DNA of 64,000 nt from Botryllus schlosseri (GCA_051294905.1 CM119371.1:10666001-10730000), one strand, 5' to 3'. Shown: positions 4,382 through 63,306, counted from the first letter of the stretch. The notes: generated by a model from the letters alone, not told the origin. Translations and numbers: made by a program.

Positions 4382-4561
4382 ACCAGTTCAAGCAAATTGA
4401 CGATGTCGATGAAAATTCACGCCCACGCCGCTGCCTACAATAACAATATTTTCGAAATCGACATGAGTCGAAACCTCGGCGACACAGGTGCAGACAATTT
4501 CATTGTGACATCATCGTGCAATAGACAACGATATATGATCATGCGCTTGATGAATGTAAAC

Positions 4562-40479: not shown

Positions 40480-40767
40480 AGTGGCGAGATAGCGCAGTGG
40501 TATAATCCGCGGCTACAACACCAATGGGTGCGGGTTCGAGTCCGACCGAGGTCGACTTCCGAATTCCGATATCTAAGTGTTGGAGGTTTACCTAGGCTCC
40601 TCCTCGCCACCTCATCCGCGTCAGCGGTGTCTTACAAAAAGCCTAGAGGTGGGCCGTGCTATAAGTCGGCAGTTACGGAAAAATACAAAGAATATCGGCC
40701 TGGTGTAAATGACCACAGTAGTCGACAAACACCATGAATACCCCAAAAAACAAACAAAAAAACAAAC
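40480..40767 (+). mobile_element. tRNA-derived SINE
   Basis: A box TAGCGCAGTGG (40490-40500), B box GGTTCGAGTCC (40533-40543), CAAA-rich tail, perfect 12-bp TSD AAGGCCTACACT (40468-40479, 40768-40779). Confidence 0.93.
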
Positions 40768-43150
40768 AAGGCCTACACTCAATTCGGTCTTTAACGCTAT
40801 GGACGCATTAGTTATGGAGTGACATCCAGTTCCGCAAATGCTTCATGCTGTATTGATGCCATGAGCGCCGGCTTATCCAGTTTAACTAGTTTTATCGACG
40901 ACATCATCCTTACTGACGCAGAGGAACGATTATCAGGCCCCTGAAGAAGTTTGTTGCAGACCAAATGACAATACCAACCATAGCAATCTCCAGGGATCAA
41001 ATTAGATATATTAGCCTGGTAGATTCAGGAGTCAGGACCTATCTATATTAAAAAAAGAACTCCTGCATGTAGTCAAAAGGCAAACCATTGCTAGTGTGAC
41101 GTCACATTGACAGAAAATGTGTTTATACCTCATTTTGAAATCCTCTAGCGGGCGCTAAAGAGCACCCAGAGTTTGAGCCACAAAAATATAGTAACCCTAC
41201 ACTAATCTAATTTTTTGTGTCAGCTTACTATACGCAGCGAAATCGAGAGTGGCTACGTAATAAAAATGGTCGCGCCAGGCGCGAAATTTTTTTAGATTCA
41301 TCGATGGTTTTCGTCATTCTATTAGTAGTTTCACTTATTTCTTTCAAACATTTATCCTTTCTCAACCCATGTGATCGGATTCATCGGTAGAGTCGGTGGC
41401 GGGCTTGTCTTCGGAAATGCAAGGTATAAATGATGATGGATCTTTGGGTGGGCCAACTGTTATCAGTCACTTTCTTTCCAGCTGTTATTTCTTGGCCTCC
41501 CATCAGGATTGTCAGTATAGTGGAAATGGAAATATATTGGAATCGCCCAAACGTACTCGAAACAAATTCATTTCGTGAGGATCACACGATTCCGAGTTGG
41601 TATATGAGGCGCATCATCTTCCTCTGATGTTCGCATCTATACTGTGGGGATTGGATTGCAAATTGCGTTACTATATATTTAAAAAAAGATGTAGCAGTGA
41701 ATCGCGCGTAGCGCTAAGAAAATATGAAGATTATTTGAAATCTCTCAAAAATCCGTAATTTCAATTTGCTTGTCGAAGGCCGCTAACGCACACTAATGGA
41801 ATTAGGTGTCGACGGCCGCACAAAGTTCCGTCTACGGCCGCAGGTTGGCCACCCCTGCTCCAAAACAGTAAAGATGAGACTGCATATGTAGGGCTGTAGC
41901 TCAGCGCTATGTTACCGCCAAACAATTTGTCATTTGAGTGGTACGGTTAATAAAATGATACCGGTTAACAATCGTCTCCGCCTCTGAAGTTTTCTTCTCG
42001 GCTTGGAGTAACTGATTAAATAACAGGTCGCTGTCAGTAGAACAAGTGAGGGGTGGCTACCCTCGCGTGTGCTGCACCGATTTGATTAAGTCGTGTTACT
42101 GACGAATATGCAGTCAATTCGCATTCATTTTCTTTGATTGTTGGTTTTGCTTTAAAATGCACATCTAAATCGCATTTAGTTCCAAAATATACCACATGGC
42201 TGTAACGAAAAGAAAATTATAAATATGTAGCTTGAAAAAGGTTACCGAACCCTCTAGCGACGGTAAAGTGTCGGATGGTGTGTCGGACATGGCCAACTGT
42301 CGTTTTTCATTGTGTCGGATGCTCAAATGTAAAGATACCCTATTGATTAGTGCGGACGGTTTAACATCACATCAGCGTTTACACAAGGAATTTGGCGCAC
42401 ACGACGAACCCTATGCAGTTAACCTTGATTTATTGCCTCAATGACGTCACGTATCGTCGATTGTGACGTAACAGTTGGCATTGATGTATGGCATTTGGGA
42501 ATTACAACTGAAAATTTCGGGTTAATATGATTCTTTTGTCGAAAAAGGTTCCCGACCCCTGCTATATATTGGATTTGAAAGGTTGTAGATTTTCGTTTTT
42601 GTACCTAAGTGAAAATTTGATGTTCGCTGGAAGCTTTCAGATTAACGCAAGGGATCGCCAAGTTAGTAAATGTTAAGAACCAACCACTGATCTATAAGGT
42701 CACGTTATGTTAGGAATTGATGGCGACTCATTCAGTAACTGCGATATGAATGTTATGTAGCCATACCAAAGACATGATATTACATTCCATGCACTTTCGA
42801 CTTCGTTCTTGAAATCAACTACACTCGATATATCTACAAGGGCTAAATTTAGTATAATATTTAATATAAAATGCTCGCAACTGATACTTTCGAACGTTCA
42901 CTAAGGGAATTGCGATATGTAGTAATCAGATTTAGCATGACATCATTAATCGATATATATATGTAAATGTGTAACGTTATCGTCACGTCGCTTTAATGTT
43001 TACGAATAGAGAAAAACAAAGAAAGACCTAATGGCCTGAGTAAAAGTATGAATATTATTACATAAACCATAGTAATATAGTATCCAGAAAAGCTCAATCG
43101 TTTCATTATTCAGAACGCTTCTATACGCTACGGAAAAAAGAACGGGAAAA

Positions 43151-43211
43151 ATGAACCAGCAGGGTGAATCGGTATACGAAGCAGGATATCTCGATATTTA
43201 CGAAACAACAA
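43151..43211 (+). CDS. Putative first coding exon of gene 2 (Tyr-rich cytoplasmic tail)
   Basis: Acceptor-like ttattcag at 43113, AAAAATG start, MNQQGESVYEAGYLDIYETT-A|gtaaag; phase 1 matches the TM exon. Confidence 0.55.
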
Positions 43212-46200
43212 GTAAAGTTTGATTTAAATAATTTAATTTCAACGTAAATATATTTGACTCTATACTACTATGTGTGACTAGGTGTGCTGCATAATTGGGA
43301 GAGTTTCACGTACAGAATTAGTTGGTCATTTTCCGTGACTGTTGCCCATTACTTCGGTCATTTCATACCAAGCCGATAGTTGTCGTTCTGATGACTGATC
43401 TACCGAGTGCCGACTTTTAGAATGGCTCAATTTCGGCCAAAGCTTTTTGCGAAACACCGCTTACGCAGGTCGAATCGGATTAAAAACCTTCAACTGTTAG
43501 GACGACATTTTGGAGTCGATTTCTGTCGGATTCGAACCCGAAATCCACTATGGTGTAGTGATGGAGGTTTATCTAGGCTCTTCCTCGCCATCTCATCCGC
43601 GTAAGCGGTGTCTTACAAAAATCCTAGAAGTGGGCCGTGCTACAAGTCGGCAGATACGGAGTCAAATATAAACAATATCGGCCTGGTGTAAATGACCATA
43701 GTTGTCGACACACCATGAATACCACAGAACCAGGGCTTTGGAGCTGCCGTAAATTTGCATTGCTCCAGCTCCGGCTCCGGATCTTTCTTCTATCTTACAC
43801 TAGCTCCGGCTCCAGCTCCGGAGCCGCATTATTACCACTGCTCCGGCTCCAGCTCCGGCTCCGGCTCTGTAAACTATCGAAGGTGCCTGTGTATATCTGG
43901 GGTGGGCAACCCGCGGCCTGCGGGCCATATGTGGCCCGCGAGAAGGTTTTGAGTAGCCCGCGAGCTAATTTCCCATTATATTATCGAAATCCTGCTATAT
44001 TATCGAAATTGAATTGCTCAGATTGTGAACTTGCAAGGCCAACCAAAAATATGATTAGTCTGACCGCAACACTTGGGATGTTGATGAGTAAAATATCAGT
44101 TCTGACGCATTGACAGATCCATGGTCCAGTCACATTTCAAGTAAATCATCATACATTACAATAAACTAGAATAGTAGTAAATTTTTCTTCAACCTTCGCG
44201 TGTTTAATTGTCACACGATTTCTTGCTTTGTAGCTAGCTACCCTCCCCTGAAAATAAAAAAAACGCCTGATTTAGCCGATTGAGTCTAACTATATTCGCA
44301 ATTACGAGAGAAAGTCTTTTCGCGTTTGCGCTCGCAGAAAGATCGTCGACGAAGAAATGAAGGCACAAAATGATTGTCGTATATTAGCGGAAATCTTCGA
44401 TATCGATATGTCCATATGCCGAATAGTCCTGTCCTTGTAAACTGGGCCCAGCGAGCGGTATACAGTTGACCCGCAATATACCTGTCACGGTGGATATTAT
44501 TTTCTTTATGGCTCACTCGCCACTTATACTGCTTCGGAGCGCACGTGTGTTCATTTACGTGAGCGACGTGGTGAGAGTAGCCAGCTTTGTTTTGTTGTTG
44601 TTGGTCTGTTTTATTTATTGTTTAATACTGGTTGTATTAAGGATATTACCAGCAATTTTTCAACGGTATTTTAATAAGATATTCGTCCATTTGGAGTTCT
44701 TGTTTCGTGCCAGTTGAGAGAGGAGATCCAGAGTCAGCCTACTCCAATCACATTCTTCATAAGTCTCTACTTGGAGACGACAATACCCAAGTAATAATAA
44801 TATTAACTTTGAAAATTTCTCGCGCCTGGCGCGCCTAGTGGGCAGCGCACTCTTTCGTCAATTTCATGTGGCCCTTTAGCCGAAAAGGTTAGCCATCACT
44901 GGTCTATATCGATTACTAATTTACCCGTAGGTTAGTTATCTATAGTAATCTAGAGTCTGTCAGCCGTCAGTGACATCGGATGCAGCAACGAAGATATAGG
45001 TGCCACCGTGTCGGTTTGTGAGGTCATAATGAATACTTGTCAATTGTCGATAACATCATAGTTGCACTGCACAAGAACACACTTTACTTCATGCCATTGC
45101 TGTGTATGGTATGAATATAGAATGCAAACATTTGTTTACATTCTATTGTATGAACATTCTGATGCGGCGTTTTAACACTGGCACTGTACTCGTTAACATT
45201 AAGCCATACAGCTCAATTCAATCTTTAAATAAGCGATTATTATTCAACTGTAACTGTAGTAAGAGCAAAATGGGCGGAGATCACGACCTCATCAATAAAA
45301 ATTCGATTGGTACCAAATGGCCAATGGTTTGACGTTTGATATTGGTGCACTCGTTGCCAATCCCTCTGGTGTCGATCAAGTTTATCGGAATATAATATTT
45401 TCCCATTGAAACGAATTGAATTAAACACTTTACCATGCACATTGCGCCATGCCCATAACGAATTAAACTATGCAGTATGTACATTGCACATTTACAAGTC
45501 ACAGTGAGCGATAATCCGGGAATACTATGTAGTATCAAGCAGACATCAAGAATGAATTTACGAAACAGATGATTACAAATTGGAAATCGCTTATCAAATC
45601 AGTAATATGTCTCCAACATAAATACCCTGGGCTCCTGACATCGAATTGAGTCGCTCGCACCGCGACAATTGTTCTGCTCAGTGTAACGGCGTTTTGGGTT
45701 ACTCTTCTGCCATCCCCTATTCACGCTCGAAAGCCTTACTGGAGTGAATGACGATCATGCGGCGTAAGGAATTCCGATTCGCATGCATAATTGTATATTT
45801 GTATACTCCCTAACACTGTCCAATTCCGCGGCCCGATTAACGAACTGTCACGAAAGAACGAGTATTTGCTCATCCGATTCATAGCAACAATGATATGGAA
45901 TTTCGCTGCTCGTTCTCATCATATCGACATGTGCATTGTGCAACGAAATCACGTTTTTATCCTCTCTCCCATTTTGCGTAATACATAGTGATCATTATTT
46001 TCGAACCGTACAATTGGCCAACAAGGTTGTGCTGATGATGAAATTGCGGGTATGCCGAATACCCATAATATTCACAGGCATATCTAGCATACCGAGGTTC
46101 GGCATTCATGTATGAAAATTGAACATTGAACATATGACTGCTCTGCTGTTAAATCCCCAGGAACATAGTCGGATAAGGTAGCGCCAAAGAGTAAAAGATT

Positions 46201-49200
46201 CTCAATTTCGCGAAGGCCTGCTGTCGAATTATTTGAACTCCGCAGATATGGTTGTTGCTTCGGATCCGGCTCCGGCTGAATTTTATATAGAGCTCCGGCT
46301 CCGCTAAAAATGCATGGCTCCGGGGCTCCAGCTCCGGCTCCAAAGCCCTGCACAGAACAACAAACTATGATGTAGCTGGGAACGTGTCATGCGTGATCTT
46401 GCCACCGCGAACTCTCAATTCCACGTAGGCTCATCTTTCCACTTGCGAACGCAAAGTCATTCCAGGTGCAGAGTAGCCTACATATATATGCTTATTGCTT
46501 ATCTAATACCAGAGGCGGTCAAAGTAGTCAAGAAAGCTACTCAAGTAGAAGTAGAAGTAGCGACGAAAAAATCTACTCAAGTACAAGTAGAAGTACTTCT
46601 TTCATGAGCAACCTGAAACTACTTGAAGTAGAAGTAGAATTGTCTGACTTTAAAAGTACTCAAGTAAGTAAGTAGTTGTGAAAACGATCCTGATTTGATG
46701 GATTATAAAAAGGTGCAAATTGAGCTATGTGATAGGTGACGAGCTTGATTCATATTGATGCATAGCAGCAGGTATCCAATTTTCGATAGCATAAGCATTC
46801 GCCCACATCATGGGATGAAATGATAGTACAGTATTGATAAGGAAATGCGATGCTAATCCTCTATTTTCTCGAACAGCACGTTTTGGAAAATAGCATGGTA
46901 TGGCGCCATCCCCCATATTATAAGGCCCGTAGTTTAGTCGAGGAGCAATACGGAGAAGTTATATAGGATATGGTGTAAACACTTTGCGCGGTTACTAAAC
47001 GTTAATAAAAAATATGGTGGACCGTAAAAGTGCCATATTGCGTACCTTTATTTCCAGACATTAAAGGCATTACTGCACTTGCTTCTATACTTCAACATGT
47101 ATGTTATCCAGACAAAATAACTGATATTAATTATAACTCAAAGTATATGATACTGGGAATTGAAAGTGAAATATTAATACTACTTCTAAAAGCAGAATAT
47201 GTATTTCATGTTTTTAGTCCAGAAAGTTTCAAAGGTGGTATGCTAAAACAGCTCTAAAACTAAAAAAAATCAAAGTCCACTCTTCCAGATTAGGACACGC
47301 CATGGACATGCTAAATTACGATATGACAAGAAAATGCTAGATTGCGAAACATCAGTTTCAAACGTTGTGATGAGCCATATATACTGTGATGAATTATTTC
47401 ATACAGGCGAAGGGTGACAATGTGGCGTGAACGGAACCACTCCAACCCTCCACCTAAATTATATTCACCGATACTTTCGTGAAATCATACCGGTCACTCC
47501 GTAGCCACTGCGCGCGAAGCGCGACGAAAATTCTGGGCTTCACAAAACTTTTATGAAAATTCCGTGAAAGCAGCTCCGAAATTCCTCAGGCTATCTTCCT
47601 GATTGAAAGATTGAACTACTTCTACTTGACAAAGTCAAAACAGCGACAAGTAAGTAAGTAGATCACAAAATATTAAGAAGTAGAAGTAGAAGTAGCGAAA
47701 ATCAGATCTACTTGAGTAAGTACCAGAAGTAGAGGAAAACTACTTGAGTACTTCGAAAAAGTACAAGTACTTCGTTACTGACCACCTCTGTCTAATACCC
47801 TCAGAAGGGCACACACGTCCAAAATATATCGATACCTGTCTCGGTGTATTATTTGGCGTAATAGACAATCTCAATAAATTGGCGACGAGGAAAGTGCTTT
47901 AGTTTGCTCTCAAAAAATTGAAAATTTCGTACTAAAACACAGAGCGCAATAGAAGGCAATGTTGTGACAATATGCACCTAAATGCTCTACCATACAGTGA
48001 TGTTACAGGATGTGAATGGCAAAGACGGCAACGCCGGTGCACGATCGGGTAATAACTTACCTCAATGGACCTCTAAAGCGAATCATCATATAAACGTCAG
48101 TGGCATGAGAAAATTTCTCTGTGATATATGAGACAGGGTATGCCGAGCGTTTATTTATCTCATACCGAAACTATCTGGCATGGTGTAAATCGGATAACTA
48201 TACGACTATGCCAGAACAAAACATGAGCAACTATAGCGGTGGGAACACAGACCTTGAGCCATCTTTGTGCGGAACCTATGTTACGAACGTATCTTGTTTT
48301 CCATTTCAATTAGTCACTGTTGATTGCCAGCAAATCAATTTCGATCAGACGCTTGGAATCACCCTTATGTTACCAATGCTGAGTTACATAAACAGTTATA
48401 CATTATCCCTTAGAGCGCCCATATTTCTATACAGTAATTTTATCATGGAATTTTGCTGTATATTACGGGTACCCTTCACATAAACCTATTGTCAGCCGAA
48501 TTTGAGCATGCAACAAAATGAAAACCGATAGTTGAGCTTGTGACTTTTGAGCAATTCACTTTATTACCCCACGATGAACCGGAACCTCAACACCAACCCC
48601 TAAATAAACCTTATGACTAACCCTTACGCTGCGCAAACCCTGCTGTTAACCCATGTGCTTAAGTGTCGCATGCCCATGTGCCCAAGGACTAATCACTTTA
48701 TCCAAAGTAACTTGTAAATCATTTTGGCCTGCGTTGAAGATGGTCAAGAAGGGCGGACAACTCCACTATGCTCCACAATATTACAATTAATAAGAATAAA
48801 GACGACAAGTGGGGTTGACACGGTCTTGGTTGCCAGGAATCCAGTGAGCGTTCATATGAGCGTTCATATAGCTCGGATTAGGTGCTACGTTGAATATCGG
48901 ACAATACCATAAATGGCGATCGACGACCGTGCTTATGAGAAACCTCGGCCAGCTCACTACTGTTCCATTATTATAAGGTAACTATATTTTGTATATCTGA
49001 AAAGAGGACACTTTTTCAGAATTTTCATACTTAGAATACTGAAGTAAGATCCTGAAAAAAAGTAAATTTTCCCGACGTCGTGGTCGGTTGACTCAAAAAA
49101 GGTCATCTTTCCGGTTCAAATCTGGAATTATCGGCTTTCCGTGAGATTTTCCGTTGGTTGATTAAAAAGAAGGCCAATCACGTCGGGCCGTTACTTGGCC

Positions 49201-52200
49201 GCTGATTTCATAAATCTTAACCAAAATTCTCAAAAAAGAGGACAAATCCTCAAGGAGGACGTAAGCGTAACGTAACCCTACATTATTGACTAATCCGTGT
49301 CGATTAACACAACCGCTGGATGCCGTGCACCTTAAGGCCCTAAGGTGCAGCTGGAATCACAAAATTTTCCAAATTTTTTTTATTGCAGAATCTCGAAGTA
49401 TGAAACTAGTTCTTTTCAAAAATGTATTGCTCTTGTCTGATTTCGAATTAGAAGTATGTTGAAATACGATTTCAAATCCCCCATTTTCGTAGAAATTCAC
49501 CCCCCATACTCTTTCATTCATTTAAACTCACTCAAAATTGTCTATAAGCATTCTGCCAAGCTGATTTTATACAATAAATAGAAGAGCCATATGTCTAATC
49601 GATGAAGCGTGACTTTCAAAACATTCAGCAGCCCAGCAGCAGCCGATCGCTTACCTGGGAAGAGCTGAAAGCTGTTGATATTATGAGCGTTGTTTATCGT
49701 ATTGTATACTATTCAAGATTGCATTGGTATATTGCTAATAGCTATTAGCTAATCGCTTAATTGACGATTAGGACAAAGACATACACTACGAAGTCATTTG
49801 GCATAGGGAAAGATAAAACCGTGGTAGAAAAGAACCAGTGGTTCCTGAGCAGGAGCTGAACAATCGAAGAAATCTTTTGAAAAAGATTGGAGCTTTCACC
49901 GCCTTCAACATCTGATAATGATGGTTCGGATTCGGCGGAATCGTTTTTCCTCGCAATTTCTACATTTTTGATGCAGTTGTTCTCAACACTGTGAATTGCC
50001 TGACTGTGGCTCATCCGGCAAAGGATATTGGGACTGCACAGGCTATGCATAAGGGTTATGCAACTCAAATTAGTGTCGCAGTGTTATGATGAAATTGATG
50101 CTAAAATTGTATGTTTGAAAGATGTTGGGGGGGAAATACGCGTGTAGTATCTTGACTCATACCTACTAAAATGGGTATTTCGACAATGTCACAATATTCT
50201 TGACATGTTGTTCCGTTTTCAAAACATCTAACTGATGTTTAGTTCAAGGTTTGCAAATTTTTCGAATATGGTATGGCAGTTTTGGGAAAAAATCATCAAA
50301 TCAATCATACTTCATACGACTTATTTTGCATTTAGGCACTTTCAATTGTCTTCAAATTTGGCTATATACTGAATAAAGCATGCCTGCACCATTTAAAAAC
50401 AACAAATTTCAAATACCTGCTTTACTTTTTCACCAAAATATTTTTCAATTTTCAAAGTTGATTTTCTCCCATTTCTAGTTTTTGGTAATATGATGTCGCG
50501 GGGACACGAAATTTTGATATCAGGTGACCTTCAATCCTGATCAAACTTTGCTCAGTACTAGCAATAAGACTGTTCTACCTGGTGAACTTATTGTTTTTGC
50601 TATAGGAGTTTAGGTGTACTTACTATGTTACTGATGATCTGAATTTTGTGAAAAATATTAGAAAATTCGGCACCGTACTGATATCAAACAAATATTTTGG
50701 TAATTTTTTCGAAAATTCGTTAGTTTCAAGCAGTTCACCAGGTGGTTAGAGACCTCAGAACACTTTATGAAGCCTTGGTTAGAATCTCTCAGCATCCATT
50801 GATGAGACAGGCGTTTCCCCGTACTAACCGTCCGATTCACCAATCTCCCCCCCAATTTGGGCCCAAGGAATTACTGTGAAATGCTGAAATTTATACCGTA
50901 CATGAAGTTGGGTATGAATAGCTTACACACCAATTTTTGAGAATCTAGGATTGACTGTTCATAAAATATCGCAATTTGAAAATTTTGCGAGTCTAGCTGC
51001 ACCTTAGGGCCTTAACACTAAATAATTCGATGTAAGCGACTCTAAATTTTACTAATGGAGTGGTCGAGAGGAATATGGAGTATCAGCTATGCCAGATTGG
51101 ATTGGATTGAATACAATACTTACTGACACTAAACACATAGTCATTCCTTACTGAAACGTCGACTGTCGCTTCTGATATTTCATTGTGGTATATGGCCACA
51201 CATTAAGGTCATTCCAGAACAAATATCTCGGGCATGTGTGGTCTTTTGAATGGCAACGTAGGCATGTGAAGTAATAGGTTTGCTTCCACATCTCGCTCTC
51301 GATAAAACTTCGTAACAATAACACGCGAACCCGGACCTTTTATGATTTCGCTTTATCGCCATGTTCACCATTCATGAATTTGTATATGAATGTGGCATTG
51401 CGTTGGAGAGAAAGAGACAACTTTTCGAAAGGAACAAATGCTTCCAATAGGCATGCCCTTGATAAACGCTGGCGCTTCGACGCTATGGTAGCAGTGGTGG
51501 CTTTTGGGGTGGGCGAGGTTGGCGGTCGCCCGGGCCCTCCCCTCTTTGGTTTTAGCGCTTTTTTCAAGGGTATGTACCAATCAAAAAGATGATTGCGTTC
51601 AGATGAGTAAAAAGTCCCATATCACGAGAATCATCAAGTCTCTGCAAGTTTGCATGCCTTTTAAGTTGGTTGTGAAAGGGGGGTCTGGGGCGAAGCCCCC
51701 CAGAGGCTGCGATTACATACTTATAGGGGGCTCCCCCGGAAGTCTCGCCTAGGGCCCCCTCCAATCGTAGGGCCACCACTTTATGGTAGGCTATAATCTG
51801 ATAATTATCATAATTCGTCGTGTTTCAGTACGTAACTCTCCAGCTGATGTAAAATCGTCGGATCCGAAATCTTCTGTCCTCAAGCGAAACAAATCAAAGT
51901 CAAGATTAAAGAAAATATTATGGTTGACGTGCTTACTGGCTACATTGGTCTTCGCAGTATGCGTGATCGCGTTGCTTGCTGTGCTGTTGGACAGGCAAAC
52001 GGTAATCAGTATTTTACCATTGTTTCAAAGTATTGTATCCATAGTGTTTAGTCACAAACTGTCATTTTGCACTGGGACTGGGACAAGATTCTTTGTATGA
52101 TTCCCGAAGTGCTGACGTGTGCCACGGTAAGACACCGCTTGAACCGTACGAAAGAAAGTTACACCTGACAGTATCTGGTTACAAAGAAAGTCTAGCACAG

Positions 52201-55200
52201 GATAATAATTTTTTTCGATAAGAACATTAGTATTTCATTAGTAAGAACATATGATTAGATAGTAGAACAACTGTTCTATATATCCCTCAGTTCTCATTGC
52301 AAACTAGCATTGGACAAAATCTGTCAAATCACAACGATTTTCATTGTCTCATCGCGAAATATCCACCGAACATGTTTCCATGAAAGTAGTGGTTTATTTT
52401 AATTCATGTAAAATGAATGAGGCGTACTTTTGGATTGCCAATTCCCCGTTATAACACTCCCGTCACGCTAGCTACTACAAGTCGATTCGACATCTTCCTA
52501 TCTTTTCATTGTATCGCAGTTTTGTGACGTTTTGAAATGATGAAAATATTAATAAACTGATACTTGTACTGATAGCTCGTGGTATTTTCCACAATATGTT
52601 TTGAACTAGGTATTGTATCCTGCAGCGCACTGCGTGCCGAAATCGAATAGTCACTGTAGGCTACTGTACAACTTTTGAGAGTGATGCCCTTTGTACATGG
52701 AAGATATTGTGAAGCTTTTTGGCCAAAATGATTAACTAAATATACTTGCATTTGAGAGTTACAAAATTAAATCGTCAGAATATTTCTTCATCGTATTATA
52801 AAGGATCATAGTGCTTAGTGTTGGTACCCATTCATATTAAAGTTAAGAGCTTGGTACAGTACTAAATTAAATCAGAGCTAAGATCTCTGCCATATTCTCA
52901 GTTGATTTCGTAGTCAAACAAATCAATAAAACAAAACCCAACAGAATTACCTTTCCCGTATTGTCAATCGCAGAGTAGAATTCGGGATGTGCACACTGTA
53001 CAGTGTACATTGATCTCGAACCAAATGCCAGGAGCGTATGAGCCCGTAGGCCTTACCCGATGGTTGATATAACAACATAGATTGGATCCCGCAAATAGCC
53101 CATACAATTATACAGTCTAATAGTGAAGTCCCAACCCGAAACCGGACATCAACCACTTGCCCATCGTTTTTTACTACAGTCCTTAAAAGAGGGGGCGTCA
53201 GACCAAGGCCATTTTTGAATGGGGGCGCTGGAGAAAAAATATTAAGAACCACTGCCATACACGGATAGAGATAGTTGGCGATGCCATACAGAGTCGAACA
53301 TATATAGTGTACAATATATACTGGAATATATCAGATCGACTTTTAGAACCATATATCACCAGTTTATGCCGTTCATATACACGTAGGGGAGATGTGCTAG
53401 CCAACCAACTTTTCTTGCTGTCTACTATAATCTAAGCTACAGCCAGTCAAAGAAGAATGTTTTTGGTCGCCACCTTAGATATATAGAATAAAATATGAAG
53501 TCAAATTTTGGCAGAAAATGATGTTTCGACTTAGGCTACAAGTTACACATTGGCGGTTACATCATATTGTCGTAAATCGACATTTGACTTCAAAATCGCT
53601 GGCCATTGCGATAAAATACCACATGTCATTATTACACGCAGTCTCGCTGCTTGTAGGCGTGTTCCTGTGGAAGCATGATTAATTAGTCCAACTATTTCGC
53701 TTGATTGAGCTACGTTATTATTGACCCCACGCTATAAATTCTTCAATTGAATTGAAGAAATTTGACTCAAGGATTGTATTGAATAAGAAAAGCATGTGAC
53801 ATCATATATCCTGATAAAAGCCCTCCACTCCTCACCAGAAATGATTGTAACTTTGTTTGTGTTGAAGGTTACAAATAAAAATGTATCGAAATCTCTTTTC
53901 TACTACCAAAAAAGAAAACAATTGCCACAGACACCATAACTCGCGCAGCATGCATCTGTAAACACATTCACAGAGTCTTATCATGGGATTATGATAAATG
54001 ATTTTTCAAGTATTTTCGGTCCCAATATGTCGTCGGTACCACATCTATTATTTTGCTGCCATCTCATGTTTATGTCGGTCCGTGGTATAAAAATTCCCAC
54101 CCTGTACACTGTTGTTATCCATATGATGAAAAATGATGATATTAATAATAATTCGTGATCTGATCGCTATTGCGAGAGGTTGAATAAGTAAAACTTCGTA
54201 CAGAGGATCGAGATACGAAAACGGTCAAAATCATGAATATGTCGAATTCATTTTGGGAGATATCCATCCAAACACCTTCTTTATTGTGTATATTATCAAA
54301 ACATTGTGGCTCAGCCATTTAGTAAGAACGCAAAAGAACCGCCTATCCCTCACCCATGCTATAGGAATAACAAGACTCATACTCATAATAAATTAATATT
54401 TACTTCTTCGACAATGGAAATGCGTCAAACTCAATCAAGTTGTATCTTCTAGTCGATTTCGTCTATGCTGCGAGCAAACGAAATATCACGCCCCGCATCA
54501 TGTCTGGAACTAAAACAAAGTGGGGTCAGAAGTAGCGGTATACATCAAATTCAATTGCCGGACGAGCATGTTCCAATCGAGGTAAGTTCAGCTTAATAGT
54601 GTGCTATTTCTGTAACTCCTTCAGAATCATATTCCTTTCGGTTTGAGATTTGAGAAATGTTGGGAACAATCTGCTGTCTCTGACATGCAATATACCTGAT
54701 AGGGATGGTGTGAACCTCTAAAAGGTTCAGGTTCGTGTGAACGCGAACATTTTTGCAAGGTTCTGTGTGAACGTGAACGTGAACCTCATGCTAATTCCAA
54801 CCCTACATCTCAGTGAAGTGATATATTAATGTATACACGATACCCAGCGATGACTCGGGCCGCATAATGCCACAATGCTGAAGTACATACTGGCTATTTG
54901 AACGTCGCCAAATGTATCAACTGTGACAATCAAATTATATTTCAATCGCATAAAATCAATATCTTCCGCCTCTTTGCCAACAATTTTGACAAAAACTTGC
55001 AAGGGAATATAAGCTTACGCCTTACCTGTCTAGGTCAGACCGGACAATGTAGTCGGCGTGTGAGTGTTGCTACACTGACATTGAGTGTAACACGGGTTTA
55101 TATATACTTACTAACAATATTACCCCATTAACAAGGTATACAGTAGAATCCAACACCCCAATCGCACGGATTTTGTTTTTATAAAACACTAAACATATGA

Positions 55201-58200
55201 AATCAAGATGAACCCCGTACGCTTGCTACATTTATTTTACATCAGACAACGATATCAATTTCATTGATTGATTGAATAAGCATCATTTGCTGACTACCAA
55301 CAGCTACAAGTAGTGTATTTCGCTCTTGATGTTTTTGATTGCAGGTCAAGCTCACGGCAGAGAGTCAGTAAATATTCACAAAAGTAAAGCTGATTATTTC
55401 GAGCAAACTTTTGTCACAAAGCAAGTACAGTTTTTGAGATAGGCAAGGCGCATGTTCGTTTAGTGTTGATTTTTTTTTGTATGCTGCCAGCGCCATTTAT
55501 AGCGTGGTCCGAAGGTGAAATGCAAAGAATTTCAACCAAAGATGTGATAATTGTGATATATGTGAAAAATTGTAATATATGAAAATGGTTCACGGTGCAG
55601 AACCTACCAAGGTTCGTTTGTGAACGTGAACCTCTAAATTTCAGAGGTTGACACACAGAAGGCCAACGTGAACCTCACGTTCACACCATCTCTAATATCT
55701 GACATATATAGGCTACCTACCGTACATTGCGTCTCGATGAAAAATAGATGACGTCGGCTAGAAAGCAAATTAAGTCAAATAAATTGTTTGAAACCTGTTC
55801 CTTATGCAATTCAGCTCCACGCGTTTCATAGCAGTTGCCAGAATTAGGCTGGACAAATCCAGTAGTTGAGAGAATCTAGAACTCATTATGACGACACAGC
55901 AGATTGAGTGATATGTAACGTTCAAAAATGTATCTTTTATGCGATCACAAGTAGATGATGCCAGCAGTTGTTGTTGTTTATTAAACAAAATGATGTGGCG
56001 CTTGTCGCCTTACGGCTTTTTGCACCACGGACAAAGACATAATGTAAAGTGTGAAGGATACGAGGATGTCGTATGAACTAATGACGGATATCAGAATGGA
56101 ACAAAAACGATCAAACAACAGAATAGCCTAAAACACCGAAGTTACAAATAGCGGTTACACTATAAAACAAATTCAACTACGAACGGAATTATACGAGAGT
56201 CAACCAGTAAATCAGTAATACAAAAATTAACTTTCAATTGCGCACATTTATCGATATGAAATTTCCGATGAAAATCAGAACTTGAATATAGCTTTCAATA
56301 CAACATCCATTGTAGCAGTATATTTATTAAACTCGAATACTTTTCGGGTGCCTCTTTTCAAGAGTTATCGGCACACTAAAGGGATTTAAACATATTTAAA
56401 AGCAAAACCAAAAAGGCAAAGTATGACGCAACAATCGAAATCACAGACCACGAAATTCGCATTGTACCAATGGCAACAATAACAAACTATGAAGTATACG
56501 GACATACGGTACTATAGTAGCAGCACAATTTGTAAATAAACAATTACACGCACGGAACCGTGACTATTACAATGACTATTACAAGAATGCCAATTACGTG
56601 GATGCTAAGGGCGGCTCATTTCTGAATATTTTTGTTCATTTTTGCAAAATTGAAGAAAGCACGACCTCTGAGGAATGCGAATCCGGTACACAAGGTATCA
56701 GATCGGCCGAAGCGTCATTTTAAAGTGTCATCTACTATAACCTAAGGTTATTGTCTGGCCATCACTATGTTGGGAGTATACTAAAAATCATTAGGACGTT
56801 TTTTTTTCTTTCTGCAAACTATAAGTCACCGGTAGTGCTATAATACATACACGCACGGTCGGTGCGACCGAATAACTGATATATCGCTATCTGTATTTCG
56901 AGTGACTTAGTCTTCCACGCAGTGGTGGCCTTTAGGGTGGGCGAGGTGGGTGGTCGCCCCTCCCCTTGTCGAAGGCCCCCCTCTTTGGTTTTAGCGCTTT
57001 TCTCAAAGGTTATAGCGAATAGACATATAAATCCGTGTACCAATCAAGAAGATGATTCTGTTCAGATGGGTCAATCATCAAATATCTGCATTTGTTAGTT
57101 TTGATGCAGTATGTCCTTGTAACCATGCAATAATAGATATGACCTAATCCAGCGCCTGGCTCAAATCTTGGCGTGATGTGCTGGCTTATTACTAATGTCA
57201 GCCGACACCTTTCCAGATTAGTGTGGTATATTTAGCCTGCAGCATTTGCAATTGTATCGCTATTCAATTTACGAGTGCTCCAAAGCCATGCAGTTGATTA
57301 AACACTGCATTTGCGACACCAATGGACGTTGGTTCGAATCCCGGTTCTGACCGACTTCTATGTGTCGGAGGTTTCTCTGGACTCCTCCTCGCCGACCGCA
57401 CTACTACGGTAGTGCACTGAAAAGCACAGAATGAAAATGAGCCGTGCTAAAAGTCGGCAGCAATGACCACGATGGGGACGCATGGGAGCGAGAGTGAATG
57501 AAGAATGACTGCGAGAGAGATTGAAGGACGTTCCCAAGCTTACAAAAAGCAAAGACCTCTGAACATTATGAAATTCGTGTCGCGGAGCACAAGGCCTAAA
57601 AAGGCGATAAGCTCCACTGTGTTGTGCACATTAATATATACATACATACATCTAGTCGTCTCACGAAATTTACATTCTCAACGAACACTTGAATCTGTAC
57701 AACGAATTTCGGTACAATTACTTAGAATATACCATACCATTTACATAAATATGTGCAACATCTGGATGGAATAATCCCAAAGCGATGCATGGAGCAGTCG
57801 TGCAATGTCACGGTTTTGTGACCATTGCATTCGTTATTCAGCATTCAGCTATCGATATAATGAAGTTGGCCCATTCCTGATACCGGAGTTTCGCAGCACC
57901 AGTCATATTGTTTAAATGATGCGTTCGATTATGACAGCAACTGCTAGGATGTACTGCAGCCCAAGAACACTATTGTCATGGTTGCAATGTCACGAATGCA
58001 GAATATTTTCGGTAATGACTCAAAATATTTTGCTATACCGAACATATTGCCGAGCTCAGATATGACTCCGCCAAAGTAACACATTAATAAACTGCTTAAC
58101 AGATATATAAATTTCATCTGAAATCGAACCTTTGTCGACTCCCTCTATTACAATAGTTTATCAAACTGAAGATGCGCATTCCCAATGTCTTAGTGGTTTA

Positions 58201-60598
58201 TGAGTGTATTCAATCGGAAAAAAGATGTTGCTAAAATATTGAGACCTCGTGCAATATTAGCCTATATCAATTTATCGGCCTGATAATTAAGTTTCCTGCT
58301 TAATAATGAAGCTATTTATTTGGTGGTTTAACATTTTTGCATGATTTAACTGGTCCGGCCCAGAGGCCACCAAAAGGTTTGAATCCGGACCGCGTTAGAC
58401 ACCATTGTTCCTATACCAGGGGTGTCAAACTCGTGCCGGTCAATCAACTGATTCCAGAATGTTACCTCCTGTATATGCTTTTCACTTGAATGCTCGATTA
58501 TCGAGCAGATATAGATAATACACATATCATAACGATTATATTCCAGGAAGTGCCAACACCTTTATTCGCGAACAATTATATTGGCATGAATACCATGATT
58601 CTCCGGTTGAATACAGTTAAGAGCCGATAAGACAGTGGCGCTAACGACGATATAAGTTGGCATATTTCTATATTCCCTTTGCTGTAGTCGTAATCAGCCT
58701 TTATTCCCGCGTGTGCGCTGTGAGGAATTCAAAATATTTAACTGTAAACGCGGGCGTAGGAGTTTAGATTATTATTATTAAATCGCAAGTCGGGTTTCTC
58801 GTCCAAAGTCCAGAGACTTATATATCGGATGACAAGTGACACAGCAGTGCGGTGTGGCCACTGGCCATAGATATTTGAATCGGATATTTGTGTAACTAAA
58901 TATATTTCCCTGTAAATTGCATATGACAGTTTTGCATTGGCGTTTGCACTTGTGTGAATCGCTACTTATTGGTCCATTTTGCCATAAAACTGTAAACTAA
59001 GTGCGTAAAGTTCAAGTTTTGCCTTCTCGAATTATATAGAGGGAAAACACAAGTATTTCCTGCAAAAAATCTGAACATTTGTTGCAAATGTGCTGTATAA
59101 TAATATAGGAATGTTTCAATCTACCCAAAATTGCTTTGCGGGCCGTATGTAAGACAACCCTACATACAGTTATAGCTTTTCATATAATGAAACTATACGT
59201 TATAATTACACACACCCTGGGGCCTGGTTCATCTTTTTATCATTCTTGAGTTGATGACATGGGCAAAGTTATCAATAAGGGGACTTTCCTCATAGAGCTT
59301 CAAAACAATGTCGTCTGAAAATGGTGTCAATCGATACCGGTGTCAATTGATTATAAATTAAGGTTACCATATTTCGTAAATGTGAAGAGAGAACACTTTG
59401 AAAATTATAAGACTTGCAATACCGGAGAAAAATCCTGAAAAAATGGTAAAAATAAAATAAAAGTTAACTTTCTGGCTAAACTACCGAAATATCGTTGGTT
59501 GACTAAAAATAATCATAATAAGGTCAGCTCTCCAGCTGCCCAACTCCCGAAATAGCCACCGGAGCGTTACTTCAGTGCTGATGAACTGTATCTCAGTCGA
59601 ATCGTGCCATATATTTTCAAAAAAGTAAAAAAAGAGGACAAATCCTCTTAAAAGAGGACGTATGGTAACCCTATGACAGACGAATTGTGACAGCCAATTG
59701 TTTTAAATCCAACGCTAGATATCGTGAGCTAGTTGGAAGTCAAAATGTCGACTTACGGGCAATCTGTATGTACCCTCAAATTTGTAAGTTTGTGTTTAAA
59801 TCGAAGCATGTATTCATGGCAACATTTAGGGTTTTATTTGTTCTATTTTCTCGACGGTTGCGACCAAACATCCTTCTTTGACTTGCAGTAGGTTAGATTA
59901 TATCACGCAGCAAGAAAATGTGGAAAATTGAAATTTTTGAGCGCATGTCTCATAGGTCCCCAGGTCGTGTTCCTTCGGACCCACTGGGTGGAAACCAATA
60001 ATTCGTTCAGGCAACAAATATTGAACGCCCATAAATATTTTTCAAAGCGCGGATATTCATGTATTTTGTGTGGTAGAAGGAGCTTGTATCAAAGTGTTGG
60101 GCTAGCAAAAGATGTGCTGTTATCGGCTGAAGATTTAATGGCCAGAGGTCATTTTGCAGTTTTCGATCCATCGGTACCACATCTCCCATACAATGTCATT
60201 ACTTGACTCATTATTCTCGTGAAGTTACGTGTCCCTGTTTATCGACCGCTGGCTCAATTATATTATTTTGCAAGGGTGATCTAGTAATTTGTTTTCTAGC
60301 GAGTACACGAGAAATCTCTAAATGTATACAAGAATTCATTATTTTAGTCAGTCGCAAGCACGATTAAAATGATGTATAGTTTCAGTCACGTTGCGTATAC
60401 CCGTTCTAAACTACCAAATACGACGTTGCATTGTTCAAGGATGTTGAAACATGATATATTTTTAGGTCTTCTGCGACATGGAAACTGACGAAGGCGGTTG
60501 GTCTCTGGTTGCGAGCATACATGAATCCGACATCAGTGCGAAATGTTCCTTTGATGATCGTTGGTCCAACTATGCACCAAATGCTGACACCTACAAAG
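43151..60598 (+). CDS. ITLN: Intelectin-family gene 2, 5' portion; predicted type II membrane protein (probably continues beyond window)
   Basis: Exons 43151-43211 (tentative), 51829-52001, 54453-54581 and 60466-60598 splice in frame: MNQQGESVYEAGYLDIYETT-IRNSPADV...KSRLKK-ILWLTCLLATLVFAVCVIALLAVLL-DRQT-SISS...RPASCLELKQSGVRSSGIHQI...IE-VFCDMETDEGGWSLVASIHESDISAKCSFDDRWS. Confidence 0.8.
43525..43730 (+). mobile_element. Second copy of the SINE (5' end diverged), tail interrupted by a hAT element
   Basis: ggaggtttatctaggctcttcctcgcca...cggcctggtgtaaatgacca...acaccatgaatacc is nearly identical to 40582-40742; the tail resumes as aacaaac after 46358. Confidence 0.85.
43731..46350. mobile_element. 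Non-autonomous hAT element with GCTCCG hexamer arrays
   Basis: TIR cagggctttggagc / gctccaaagccctg; perfect TSD CACAGAAC. Confidence 0.92.
43897..44901. mobile_element. Nested Buster-type MITE
   Basis: ctggggtgggcaacc ... ggttagccatcactg; TSD gtgtatat/gtctatat. Confidence 0.75.
46510..47790. mobile_element. hAT element with AAGTAG subterminal arrays
   Basis: TIR cagaggcggtca / tgaccacctctg; perfect TSD TCTAATAC. Confidence 0.92.
48974..49280. mobile_element. hAT Blackjack-like MITE
   Basis: taaggtaactata ... gtaacccta; TSD cattatta/cattattg; gaggac repeats. Confidence 0.8.
49336..51011. mobile_element. Kolobok-like non-autonomous DNA transposon
   Basis: TTAA TSD (49332-49335, 51012-51015); TIR ggccctaaggtgcagct...aaaatttt begins with RR, not the piggyBac CC. 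Confidence 0.82.
51492..51781. mobile_element. hAT (Tip100-like) MITE
   Basis: cagtggtggc ... gccaccactt; perfect TSD TATGGTAG; partial second copy at ~56919-57070. Confidence 0.85.
51829..52001 (+). CDS. Intelectin gene 2 exon: basic juxtamembrane stretch and TM helix
   Basis: tttcag|RNSPADVKSSDPKSSVLKRNKSKSRLKKILWLTCLLATLVFAVCVIALLAVLLDRQT|gtaatc; 25 uncharged residues after a Lys/Arg cluster. Confidence 0.82.
52255..53254. mobile_element. 5'-truncated copy of the 38957-39814 MITE family
   Basis: Shares tatatccct.agttctcattgcaaa..., aatatttcttcatcgtat.ataaagga and the ttaagaaccactg end. Confidence 0.75.
54453..54581 (+). CDS. ITLN: Intelectin gene 2 exon: start of fibrinogen-like domain
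   Basis: cttctag|SISSMLRANEISRPASCLELKQSGVRSSGIHQIQLPDEHVPIE|gtaagt; matches the PxSCxELK...SGxYxI FReD motif. Confidence 0.9.
54700..55694. mobile_element. hAT MITE with GTGAAC arrays
   Basis: TIR tagggatggtgtgaac / gttcacaccatctcta; TSD atacctga/atatctga. Confidence 0.88.
57280..57470 (+). mobile_element. Older diverged SINE copy
   Basis: B box ggttcgaatcc followed by cgacttc...ggaggtttctctggactcctcctcgcc...aagtcggcag, as in the 40480 SINE. Confidence 0.65.
59359..59673. mobile_element. hAT Blackjack-like MITE
   Basis: taaggttaccata / tatggtaacccta; body similar to 38260; TSD not preserved. Confidence 0.78.
59737..60187. repeat. Partial copy of the right half of the 62076-63036 element
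   Basis: aagtcaaaatgtcga ... gatccatcggtaccacatctccc is colinear with 62582-63035. Confidence 0.85.
60466..60598 (+). CDS. ITLN: Intelectin gene 2 exon: fibrinogen-like domain core
   Basis: ttttag|VFCDMETDEGGWSLVASIHESDISAKCSFDDRWSNYAPNADTYK-G|gtatat; intelectin signature GGWxLVASxHE...KC...DRWS. Confidence 0.95.
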
Positions 60599-61271
60599 GT
60601 ATATCGTATCTCTTTTGGCGTAGGATTTTCAAGGAGATAACCATGGAATATTTCATATCACCCTTTCAAAGCATATTCAGGTCTAAATACTATGGCTCAA
60701 TATGTCACTGCGCGTGCCTGCGGTAGTCATGTCTACATCTCGCGTGATGGCATAGGTAAAGTGCAATCATTATAAGCTGGTGGTTCTTAATCAGTGTTCC
60801 ACGGAACACTAGGGGTTCAGTGAGCCAATATCAGGGTGATTATCTACACTTATGGGGGGCTTGACCCCCCAGACCCCCCATCAGCCTGTACGTTTTTACG
60901 CTACTTATTACCGAGATTTCTTGTGCTATATAGGAACCCAGCTTATACCGCCTAAACCGCGCAAAGCGCAAACAATTCTATAATTCATGTTTGTATCGAT
61001 CAATATGAGAGGGAATTGAATATATCTTGCTATCAATTTTTTTAACCTGTCTGCTCACGTAGGCCTAATCAGAATTGCCGGTAGAGCTGAGTGGGTTGTC
61101 TTGGAAAATGTGGGACCGCAAATAATACTTAAACATATTAGAGCGGACCTGTTGGTATATTGACTTCGCTACATGATGTTGTTTAGTGATCTCCTGTCTG
61201 TTATGTCAAAATATATTGAAAGCGCCCAAACGACTAAACTATACCACGCACACGATTTCAATTAAACATTG

Positions 61272-61294
61272 TATATATATATATATATATATAT
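61272..61294. repeat. (TA)n microsatellite
   Basis: About 11 TA units. Confidence 0.9.
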
Positions 61295-62075
61295 CGAAGT
61301 TTTCGGTCAGCATAAGGGCAGTCCTTTTCGGCCAAGCTTATCCCGCTGCCGATCGTCCTGGCAAACGTCTTGTAGTCGCATGTTACATGGCCTAAAACTT
61401 CATATGTCTTGGTGCGTAGTGGCGCAGTGATGGCCGTCGTCCATATTCCCAATTCCATCCATCGTGCGTATTTTTTCTTGGAAGACGGGTACCCAATAAT
61501 CAAGATATTTGACACATGTAAATCGCTAACAGCGCGAAAAATGTTTTGAAAAAGTTGCATATATTTAAAAGATAATACTCTATTATTTATGGTAATTCAG
61601 AAAATAATTTTGGGCCCCTTCGAGCTTACCCCCTCCGATTTGGGGGTTTGAGGTGCGACAGATACGGTCCTGGATGTGATGTTACGTCGTGTGCAGTGGC
61701 GTGCGCAGATGAGTTGGAGCTCCGAAATATAAATTGCGTCCTTCGGAAAAAACAATCGTCTCCCAAATATTGATAAGCTCATCTGTAATAATGTAATTGG
61801 TATCTCGCTGTTGGGTTTCGACCGAACAATACGACACTTTCCAAGGTGAATCCTCACATTTCTGAACTCGTATATGTGTACGGTAGAAGTCAGACTGATT
61901 TGCGATAAATATTGTGGCAACCCAGGGTTTCCAGAATGTTATGTAGTTGCCGTTTGGAAATTATGTTGCGCGTGGTATGGCAGCAGACGGCGTGTTGAGA
62001 TTGTTGGGAGTTGGGAAGAGGGGGGATGAAGACGGATGCGAATGAGTATGTCTCTGTGTTTGCTGGCATGAAGTA

Positions 62076-63036
62076 GGGGAGATGTGGTACCGATGGATCA
62101 CTGGGACCGAAAATACTTGAAAATTCTCCATGATAATTCCATCATTACACTCCGGGAATTTGTCTACAATTACATGCTGACAGAATCTTTCCTCACATGC
62201 ACAAAAGTTCGACCTGCGTGAGTTATGGGGTCCGTGACGAATGATTTACGTTTTAGGGGGTGTAAAGTAAATTTGGATCGACATTTGTATTTTTCTATAT
62301 CACCTTTCAGACTAACAAACCCGCCATAATTTTTGATGTGAAGTATAGGACTTGTATCAGGGTATATAATGGCACATCTTTTTTGAATCAATACCATCCT
62401 CGAGTGGACTGTTTTCAAGTCAATTACAATATTTATGGGGTGGGGGACCTATGGTACCATAGCCAAATCAAACAAAATAAATGGACCAACTAATCACTTA
62501 ACAACAGAAACTCGCCTACATATATATAGGCTGTATATCATAGGTGCCTGTGGTATTTTATCGCTATTACGAGGTATTTGAAAGTCAAAATGTCGATTTT
62601 CGGGTAATATGCATGTGGCATTGATTTTGTAAGTTTAGTCATAAATCAAAACATGTTTTTATGCCAACATTTCAGTTGATATAATCTATTTTATTCTTGA
62701 AGGTCGCGACGAAACATTATTCATTGGCTTGCTGTAGCTTAGCTTATAGTGCACAACAAAACAACTTGACAAATTTGAGTTTTTGAGCGTATGTCTCATA
62801 GGTCCCATGGTCGTGTGCCTTTGGACCCACCGGGTGGGGACCGATGACACGTTCGAGCAACAAATTTTAAACGTTTATAAATATTTTTTGAGAAGGCGGA
62901 TATTCATGTAAATGTCTGCGATAGGTAGAGCTTGTATCGAAGTGTTGAGACAGCAAAAGATCTGCTATTCTCGGCTGAAGATTTGAAGGCTAGAGATCAT
63001 TTTGCAATTTTTGATCCATCGGTACCACATCTCCCC
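62076..63036. mobile_element. TA-flanked MITE (Tc1/mariner-pogo-like)
   Basis: Perfect 25-bp TIR ggggagatgtggtaccgatggatca / tgatccatcggtaccacatctcccc with TA on both sides. Confidence 0.88.
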
Positions 63037-63084
63037 TATTAGTAGTCGGTAGCAGCAGCATGGAGTAGTTGTAGGATATTTCGC

Positions 63085-63306
63085 GCCCCGCGTGACGAAA
63101 AGTTTCGAGTTTCGACAGATTTTGTCGAATGTTAATGTGCAATGAGAACTTGGGGATCATATATTAAATGTCCTTGCTGCACCCTCTACTGCGACCCCAT
63201 ACCTTCTCCTGAGCCCAGCGCCTTTTTATCGCCCCTTGAGCGTTTCCCCACCCTTCAAAATCCAAATCGGCCCTCAGGGCGCGCTGCGACCATGTAAAAA
63301 ACACTG
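63085..63306 (-). mobile_element. Left end of a 38957-family MITE, reverse orientation
   Basis: Reverse complement reads cagtgtttttaca...cgatttggattttgaag...aaacgctcaagggg...agttctcattgc. Confidence 0.7.

Follow-up and report, generated by a model that had tools for sequence, protein, structure and literature searches.

Dectin-1 and CLEC-2 are lectin receptors of type II with a short tail that bears a tyrosine motif close to its N-terminus. Here we describe a gene whose product is predicted to follow the same plan with an intelectin as its head, found in a stretch of 64,000 nucleotides from Botryllus schlosseri (GCA_051294905.1 CM119371.1:10666001-10730000; hereafter the window, with positions counted from its first letter). 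Characterised intelectins are secreted, soluble, calcium-dependent lectins, as excerpts of PMC8185196 describe them. The vertebrate members human ITLN1, Xenopus XEEL and the lamprey serum lectin (PDB 4WMQ, 4WMO, 7E1E) have the same lectin fold as the head encoded in the window, whereas the window gene differs from them in a putative cytoplasmic tail and signal-anchor that stand in place of the signal peptide, and its relatives differ in an insert of about 250 residues. [quoted passage not shown] FIBCD1, described in excerpts of PMC9994688 as an endocytic receptor, shares with the window gene a short N-terminal cytoplasmic tail, a single helix and a C-terminal lectin head of the fibrinogen superfamily, but the heads themselves differ: FIBCD1 gives an expectation value (E) of 0.2 against the fourth exon of the window gene and 5.7e-5 against the full-length homolog P0159, where intelectins reach 1e-11 and 1e-46. 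This likeness is one of architecture rather than descent, and its origin was probably independent. In Botryllus itself the FcoR receptors, in the excerpted text of PMC12582321, similarly have tails with non-canonical tyrosine motifs beside hemITAM and ITIM (a tyrosine-based inhibitory motif of immunoreceptors), but they are type I members of the immunoglobulin superfamily, and their core-2 motif [A/D]VYxxV is unlike the core described below.

The 5′ part of a predicted membrane-anchored intelectin gene

The window contains the 5′ part, in four exons, of a gene for a predicted membrane-anchored intelectin (Table 1). An AG acceptor with a pyrimidine-rich tract stands directly 5′ of each of exons 2 to 4, and the donors after exons 1 to 4 are GTAAAG, GTAATC, GTAAGT and GTATAT, all of them GT. 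With phases of 1/0/0 the four exons join into 165 residues without a stop, so that the exon stretches and phases claimed in the initial annotation, which had been made from the sequence alone, are borne out by canonical borders and an open, in-frame join. No additional exon of the gene was found in positions 60599-64000, either with the family profile or by tblastn with homologs, and the gene therefore runs off the window.

Exon 2 has no in-frame methionine, and an upstream coding exon is consequently required. The exon proposed for this role had been the weakest link of the initial annotation. We took all 1017 upstream plus-strand stretches running from ATG to GT that are open and phase-compatible with exon 2, and scored them against Styela clava N-termini; exon 1 ranked first, with a score of 44 against 33 for the runner-up. 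Its product begins M-N-Q, as in the Styela proteins P0187 and P0026, its join to exon 2 yields Y-E-T-T-I-R where these two have Y-E-T-A-I-R, and it aligns with the N-termini of P0187, P0018 and P0026. A tblastn search of the window with homolog N-termini of 24-30 residues gave nothing significant, exon 1 being the second match for P0018 (E 0.32). Given its rank and its Styela-like N-terminus and junction, this stretch is very probably the first exon of the gene, an assignment that is well supported, not proven. A different start, at an in-frame ATG just 5′ of exon 2 (51771-51828), was rejected, as it lies within the pyrimidine tract of the acceptor and lacks the family N-terminus.

The remaining exons are recognised by homology to varying degrees. 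A profile of tail and helix built from 14 tunicate homologs, run against the 2238 six-frame open reading frames (ORFs) of the window, matched the ORF of exon 2 and no other (E 0.015; next best 5). On the profile of the family, exons 3 and 4 are collinear and fall on positions 89-123 (E 1.3e-5) and 123-165 (E 1.3e-20) respectively, and exon 3 is also matched by homologs in tblastn (E 0.002-0.09); searched alone against the PDB, exon 3 gave no match, and Pfam returned nothing in the tail, exon 1 or exon 3. Protein searches with exons 2 and 4 through a word index (5-residue words) found no relatives, which reflects the limit of a 5-residue index, because HMMER found 241.

The head to which these exons lead is clearly of intelectin type, to judge from its matches. 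Exon 4 finds four intelectin chains in the PDB at E values of 1.7e-11 to 1.7e-10 (7e1e 1.7e-11, XEEL 6.8e-11, human ITLN1 1.5e-10), whereas the best fibrinogen chain reaches 2e-3 and ficolins and angiopoietins at least 0.15. In Pfam, exon 4 matches Fibrinogen_C at E 2.2e-4. The full-length homolog P0159 matches intelectins at 2.6e-46. Together with the place of exon 3 on the family profile, these values uphold the earlier description of intelectin-type head exons, and they put exon 4 closer to intelectins than to other fibrinogen-related domains.

Translation and hydropathy likewise confirm the reading of exon 2 as a Lys/Arg cluster followed by 25 uncharged residues, entering the next exon in phase 0. 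Specifically, 28 residues that include the cluster precede the uncharged run, D-R-Q-T follows it, and the first cysteine of the domain, in exon 3 (S-C-L-E-L-K), comes about 20 residues after the helix. In the joined product the tail before the helix measures 49 residues and the uncharged run begins at residue 50, with a Kyte-Doolittle mean of 3.14 over 19 residues; seven Lys or Arg lie in the 15 residues before the helix and two after it. With 49 residues ahead of a 25-residue uncharged segment, a hydropathy heuristic does not return a cleavable N-terminal signal peptide. The homologs show the same order of parts: their helices span 19-25 residues (n=19), and in 18 of the 19, as in the window product, the 15 residues leading up to the helix hold more Lys and Arg than does its far side, the remaining homolog being a tie. 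In an AlphaFold model of P0187 a disordered tail precedes a helix at 52-84. The order of tail, helix and intelectin is therefore highly probable, and the product is predicted, in agreement with the earlier proposal of a type II anchor rather than a signal peptide, to be a single-pass type II protein with its N-terminus in the cytoplasm and its lectin head C-terminal and extracellular.

Table 1. Features of the window discussed in the text; positions are counted from its first letter.
Feature	Position	Strand	Description
Exon 1	43151-43211	+	61 nucleotides; ATG start; first 20 1/3 codons of the putative cytoplasmic tail
Tyr9	43175-43177	+	In exon 1
Tyr13, Y-L-D-I	43187-43198	+	In exon 1; YxxPhi motif
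Tyr17	43199-43201	+	In exon 1; family-conserved
Intron 1	43212-51828	+	8.6 kb; repeat-rich; GT..AG borders
Exon 2	51829-52001	+	173 nucleotides; remainder of tail, Lys/Arg cluster, predicted signal-anchor helix and 4 outside residues
Exon 2, tail	51831-51914	+	Tail with Lys/Arg cluster
Exon 2, helix	51915-51989	+	Predicted transmembrane signal-anchor
Exon 3	54453-54581	+	129 nucleotides, 43 codons, phase 0-0; stalk, then the region of the first strand in the intelectin/fibrinogen-like domain
Exon 4	60466-60598	+	133 nucleotides; intelectin core with C-D-M...G-G-W; last exon of the gene in the window
Upstream paralog	12780-12953	+	Profile 194-251, E 1.1e-20
Upstream paralog	17834-17947	+	Profile 262-302, weak
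Upstream paralog	23666-23959	+	Profile 339-415
Upstream paralog	24626-24757	+	Profile 415-459
Upstream paralog	24805-24924	+	Profile 454-493, weak
Upstream paralog	31538-31708	+	Profile 491-547
Upstream paralog	32301-32393	+	Profile 546-576
Upstream paralog	32637-32699	+	Profile 589-609; ends ...I-L-I-F-Y-R, then stop

The tunicate family and its tail tyrosines

An exhaustive HMMER search with exon 4 yielded the 241 proteins already mentioned, 150 representatives of which were listed. Among these 150, 14 are single-domain proteins in which a strongly hydrophobic segment begins past residue 25 and precedes the C-D-M motif, and 13 of the 14 are tunicate predictions from RefSeq or UniProt (Styela clava 9, Ciona intestinalis 3, Clavelina lepadiformis 1). 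The fourteenth, the fish protein P0113, was not accepted as a membrane-anchored intelectin, since its cluster contains shorter isoforms, which point to a signal peptide extended too far. Further members came from a profile search: P0187, P0189, P0190, P0194 and P0185, the last of which has tail, helix and intelectin in one piece; its 681 residues on a Logan contig of 2140 bases mean that the contig must be intron-free and transcript-like. The order of tail, helix and intelectin is thus seen in at least 19 predicted proteins, 18 of them from tunicates (Styela, Ciona and Clavelina).

The closest of these are from Styela. The best single-domain matches to exon 4, among those listed, are all membrane-anchored Styela proteins with 66-74% identity, and in a tree of 34 rows and 81 columns the window falls in a clade of 14 rows (support 99/97) together with 12 Styela rows and P0185, a tree that supports membership of the clade and not a position inside it. 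On this evidence the window gene is placed in a tunicate clade of membrane-anchored intelectins. The Styela clava proteins of the clade share with it a tyrosine-bearing tail, a basic cluster, a single helix, a short stalk and an intelectin domain, as well as an N-terminus of the form M-N-Q...Y-E...Y-E-T-x-I-R; the window product differs from them in having Y-L-D-I for Y-N-D-T, in lacking R-Y-E-N and in two changed residues at invariant positions of the domain. The Styela entries are automatic predictions without a described function, and the window gene is seen over 165 residues only.

In RefSeq the members go by names such as 'intelectin-like', 'intelectin-1-like' or 'uncharacterized protein LOC...'; the Styela entries include P0187 (LOC120340930), P0018 ('intelectin-1-like'), P0026 ('intelectin-1b-like'), P0152 (LOC120335029) and P0157 (LOC120342979). 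A claim that intelectins are always secreted no longer agrees with the databases: the characterised ones are soluble, but membrane-anchored ones were already predicted in RefSeq for three tunicates. None of the titles and abstracts listed by full-text searches on intelectins describes a membrane-anchored one. One work that could bear on novelty is that of Hayashibe et al. 2017, which is reportedly on Ciona intelectins. Another is that of Yan et al. 2013 on the intelectin family, cited in the excerpted text of PMC6321704 as counting 22 tunicate intelectins. The family sequences are thus already public, and the order of parts with its membrane anchor was found described in no paper.

Intelectin heads occur in other settings as well. 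In the tunicate intelectins P0191, P0192, P0195, P0196 and P0198, which include Clavelina proteins, a collagen-like Gly-x-y stretch comes after a signal peptide, so that the intelectin head is built onto a ficolin-like plan, and P0191 and P0192 also have an insert of about 250 residues. P0144, a protein of 1200 residues from an ENA contig, contains two or more C-D-M motifs of intelectin type and, close to its C-terminus (1164-1182), a hydrophobic segment with basic residues after it; this protein may be a multi-intelectin with a type I anchor.

The tails of the membrane-anchored proteins were scanned in 19 homologs, a set that includes near-duplicates or isoform-level variants (P0187/P0018, P0182/P0189). 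Tyrosines in the tail are a feature of the family. The recurrent element is a tyrosine near the N-terminus, in an acidic setting, with a hydrophobic residue at +4 and then usually Arg or Gln, as in I-Y-E-G-E-V-Q, T-Y-E-T-A-I-R, A-Y-E-C-A-M-R, I-Y-S-N-D-I-E and I-Y-E-Q-E-V-C. Written as Y[ESGT]xx[VIMAP][RQEC], this core occurs in 12 of the 19 tails, from both Styela and Ciona, a count that describes the pattern and does not test it, the pattern having been derived from these same sequences. Tyr17 of the window (I-Y-E-T-T-I-R) matches it, and in eight tails, all from Styela, a second tyrosine follows the core as R-Y-x-N.

The initial annotation had pointed to a different tyrosine, Tyr13, reading E-A-G-Y-L-D-I as hemITAM-like, and this reading did not survive comparison. 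The definition quoted in excerpts of PMC12582321 is [E/D][E/D][E/D]xYxxL, whereas the sequence around Tyr13 (Y-E-A-G-Y-L-D-I) has one acidic residue out of the three and Ile in place of Leu. Searches by regular expression for hemITAM in strict or loose form, for ITIM and for the immunoreceptor tyrosine-based activation motif (ITAM) found none in the 19 homolog tails, and no hemITAM in the window. At the position of Tyr13, the three tails closest to it have Y-N-D-T twice (P0187, P0018) and Glu for Tyr once (P0026). The conservation of tail tyrosines among paralogs, on which the annotation had made its case depend, therefore divides: the core around Tyr17 is kept and the YxxI at Tyr13 is not. 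Y-L-D-I does fit the core-1 motif (YxxI/L/V) of the Botryllus FcoR tails, to which the excerpts of PMC12582321 assign no function, and it also fits the pattern of an AP-2 sorting signal, YxxPhi (Phi being hydrophobic), which occurs in three of the 19 homolog tails at non-aligned positions. The tail is best described, from these comparisons, as tyrosine-based and conserved and as something other than a hemITAM. Homologs of Src, SYK, SHP-1 and Grb2 are expressed in a tunicate according to excerpts of PMC12582321, so that a machinery for signalling exists.

Neighbouring paralog, inserted beta-sandwich and repeats

Upstream on the same strand, positions 12780-32699 hold another gene of the intelectin family over its 3′ two-thirds; its 5′ part (profile 1-193) lies to the left of the window. 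Its stop is 10.4 kb before the ATG of the membrane-anchored intelectin gene. With two family members on one strand the locus is a tandem array, and several Styela family genes share one 32.7-Mb contig, which fits such an arrangement. The upstream paralog carries the insert known from the full-length relatives (profile 339-493, at 23666-24924), and this genome accordingly has it.

Full-length relatives of the window gene measure 550-680 residues. Aligned to XEEL, P0159 matches in two blocks (P0159 105-247 and 497-582), between which about 250 residues are inserted at XEEL residues 170 to 178; Pfam has no match in this insert in the relatives. An AlphaFold model of P0187, built with 20 family sequences (mean predicted local distance difference test score 70), aligns with 4wmq_A over 251 residues (Z 26.3, root-mean-square deviation 3.7, 34% identity) and has a confident beta-sandwich at about 290-485, some 200 residues within the insert, which is nested in one of the loops of the intelectin fold. 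Structurally, the sandwich is best matched by entries (5h3z_A with Z 9.4, root-mean-square deviation 3.4 and 168 residues aligned; 3wiq_A with Z 8.9; 7fe3_A with Z 8.8) that are N-terminal or 'mutarotase-like' sandwich domains of sugar phosphorylases (GH65/GH94), glycosidases and lyases, and Foldseek independently gives kojibiose phosphorylase at E 3.0e-5 and the GH65 glucosidase 7fe3_A at 8.2e-5. As these scores are just above those of unrelated models, they hint at a likeness at the level of the fold and do not assign a family.

By species label, 21 raw-read RNA runs were found. Four bulk RNA runs (X3, X5, X7 and X8) were mapped on 43000-62999, with 6-13% of each read. Depth was 0-0.05 in the bin of exon 2 and 0-0.18 in that of exon 4; reads in the bins of exons 1 and 3 show their differences at intronic places (43622, 43703 and 54720-54756), and 95-100% of all mapped reads fit only partly. 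No RNA dataset was found to contain the stretch, three small contig runs carrying 0.02-0.04 of its words. The RNA result counts neither for nor against expression. Within intron 1, there are pile-ups of partial reads with 95-99% likeness at 46.3-48.3 kb and at 49.2-51.0 kb, which dispersed repeats would be expected to produce. Over the mapped stretch as a whole, partial-fit reads of this likeness collect at the intronic positions 46335-48335, 49003-51003, 56340-57673 and 59008-59674, and joints in the RNA link about 49246 to about 59615-59629 with 20-34 extra letters between, which suggests copies of dispersed repeats whose transcription takes place elsewhere in the genome. The ORFs at 40423-40734 and 43628-44110 (both +) share a stretch ...Y-(K/R)-P-G-V-N-D-H-S..., so that exon 1 has a repeated element to either side of it. 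Farther away, at 2594-4387 on the minus strand, lies a remnant of a hAT-type transposase, made up of neighbouring ORFs of 336 and 261 residues with a stop between them; the first of these matches Pfam Dimer_Tnp_hAT at E 3.3e-5.

Competing readings and their meaning

We read the product of this gene as a glycan receptor of type II at the cell surface whose tail is tyrosine-based, and put the probability of this reading, the receptor role of the tail included, at roughly 0.7. The basic cluster and the 25-residue helix would place the protein in the membrane with its N-terminus on the cytoplasmic side, and the lectin head would be exposed at the cell surface or inside endocytic compartments and may bind glycans there. 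The core of the tail (hydrophobic-Y-E-x-x-hydrophobic-R) would most likely serve, once its tyrosine was phosphorylated, as a docking site for a downstream partner, or else as a sorting signal, and the binding of glycans would thereby be coupled to uptake, to signalling or to both.

Several observations weigh against this reading. The row of the window has an end branch of 1.26 in the tree, against a median of 0.33, and exon 4 has Glu for the first Gly of the family-invariant G-G-G-W and Ser at a family-invariant Thr; the long branch and the changed residues fit a fast-evolving or a decaying copy. Nearly all of the homologs are automatic gene predictions. The core, besides having been drawn from the sequences it describes, is absent from seven of the 19 tails (P0013, P0156, P0159, P0190, P0194, P0135 and P0185, the last of which misses it by one inserted residue), and, with its conserved hydrophobic residue at +4 rather than +3, it fits no textbook SH2 or AP-2 motif. 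The tail in the window lacks the second tyrosine, R-Y-x-N, of the closest relatives. The topology is drawn wholly from hydropathy and the positive-inside rule. Transcript support is absent from the four runs at the fraction read, where none of the 15 joints listed, out of 20, is a predicted junction. Moreover, the gene is seen to be open over its first four exons, the remainder lying outside the window.

A purely endocytic or scavenger receptor, after the manner of FIBCD1 and the asialoglycoprotein receptor, would differ from the reading we prefer in using Y-L-D-I as an AP-2 signal without any signalling through SH2 domains. Tyr13 and its neighbours do fit YxxPhi, the tail is short and holds no other domain that Pfam recognises, and FIBCD1 provides a type II transmembrane precedent with a fibrinogen-related head (excerpts of PMC9994688). 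The scatter of YxxPhi over so few homolog tails speaks against this possibility, as does the conserved core, with its hydrophobic residue at +4 and its acidic context, and we regard it as unlikely, if worth keeping in mind. An acidic context is more typical of tyrosines that are kinase substrates. That Tyr13 instead forms a hemITAM which recruits Syk once phosphorylated, making the protein an intelectin-fold counterpart of Dectin-1 and CLEC-2, appears very improbable: the predicted type II topology, a motif near the N-terminus as in those two receptors, the Gly at -1, the single acidic residue upstream and the YxxI all lend it something, and the expression of SYK-family kinases in a tunicate and the hemITAMs that FcoR receptors of Botryllus are reported to have (both in excerpts of PMC12582321) would supply a setting, but the motif falls short of the canonical definition, recurs in none of the homolog tails and loses its YxxI in the closest of them.

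The remaining explanations deny the tail, or the gene, a role. Were the protein a membrane-bound precursor whose anchor is cut by signal peptidase or a sheddase to release a soluble lectin, the tail would have no receptor function, and the solubility of the characterised intelectins (excerpts of PMC8185196), the secreted tunicate members with signal peptide and collagen-like stalk and the short stalk between helix and domain in the window product would all be in keeping. A hydrophobic run that starts at residue 50 and is 25 long does not, however, resemble a signal peptide's h-region, the stalk shows no evident site of dibasic or furin type, and the conservation of the tail motif from Styela to Ciona is hard to explain for a tail that is discarded; we consider such a precursor rather improbable. 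The locus could also be a decaying or incomplete tandem duplicate, or a mis-joined model, in which the exons are real relics of a gene that is not expressed as proposed. The long branch and the two substitutions at invariant positions are what such a copy might show, as are the lost second tyrosine, the unseen 3′ part of the gene and the repeat-rich tandem locus. Four open exons with canonical splice sites and compatible phases, collinear with the profile, and a first exon that has retained both its initial ATG and the N-terminus of the family argue the other way, and leave this a quite improbable account.

Beyond the window gene itself, we tentatively consider a wider proposal, more doubtful than not, in which the type II intelectin receptors of tunicates have their own signalling motif in the tail, a tyrosine core in an acidic context to which most Styela members add a Grb2-type Y-x-N, while the head joins the intelectin site to a second, nested beta-sandwich like those of sugar enzymes. 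Among X-type lectins these proteins would be the counterpart of the C-type lectin receptors, having arisen independently in the vertebrates' sister group, with the window gene as a fast-evolving member in which Y-x-N has been exchanged for YxxI.

Intelectins are treated as soluble microbe-binding lectins, and a conserved membrane-anchored branch whose tail bears a tyrosine would show their fold used as a receptor in the closest invertebrate relatives of vertebrates, in a role that vertebrates fill with C-type lectin receptors and FIBCD1. For annotation, dozens of entries named 'uncharacterized protein LOC...' would become one definable family. The family offers a new tyrosine motif to set against the SH2 domains of Src, Syk and Grb2, and an unusual lectin head with one domain set within another. 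It also gives candidate glycan-sensing receptors of hemocytes or gut in Ciona, in Styela and in the genome described here.

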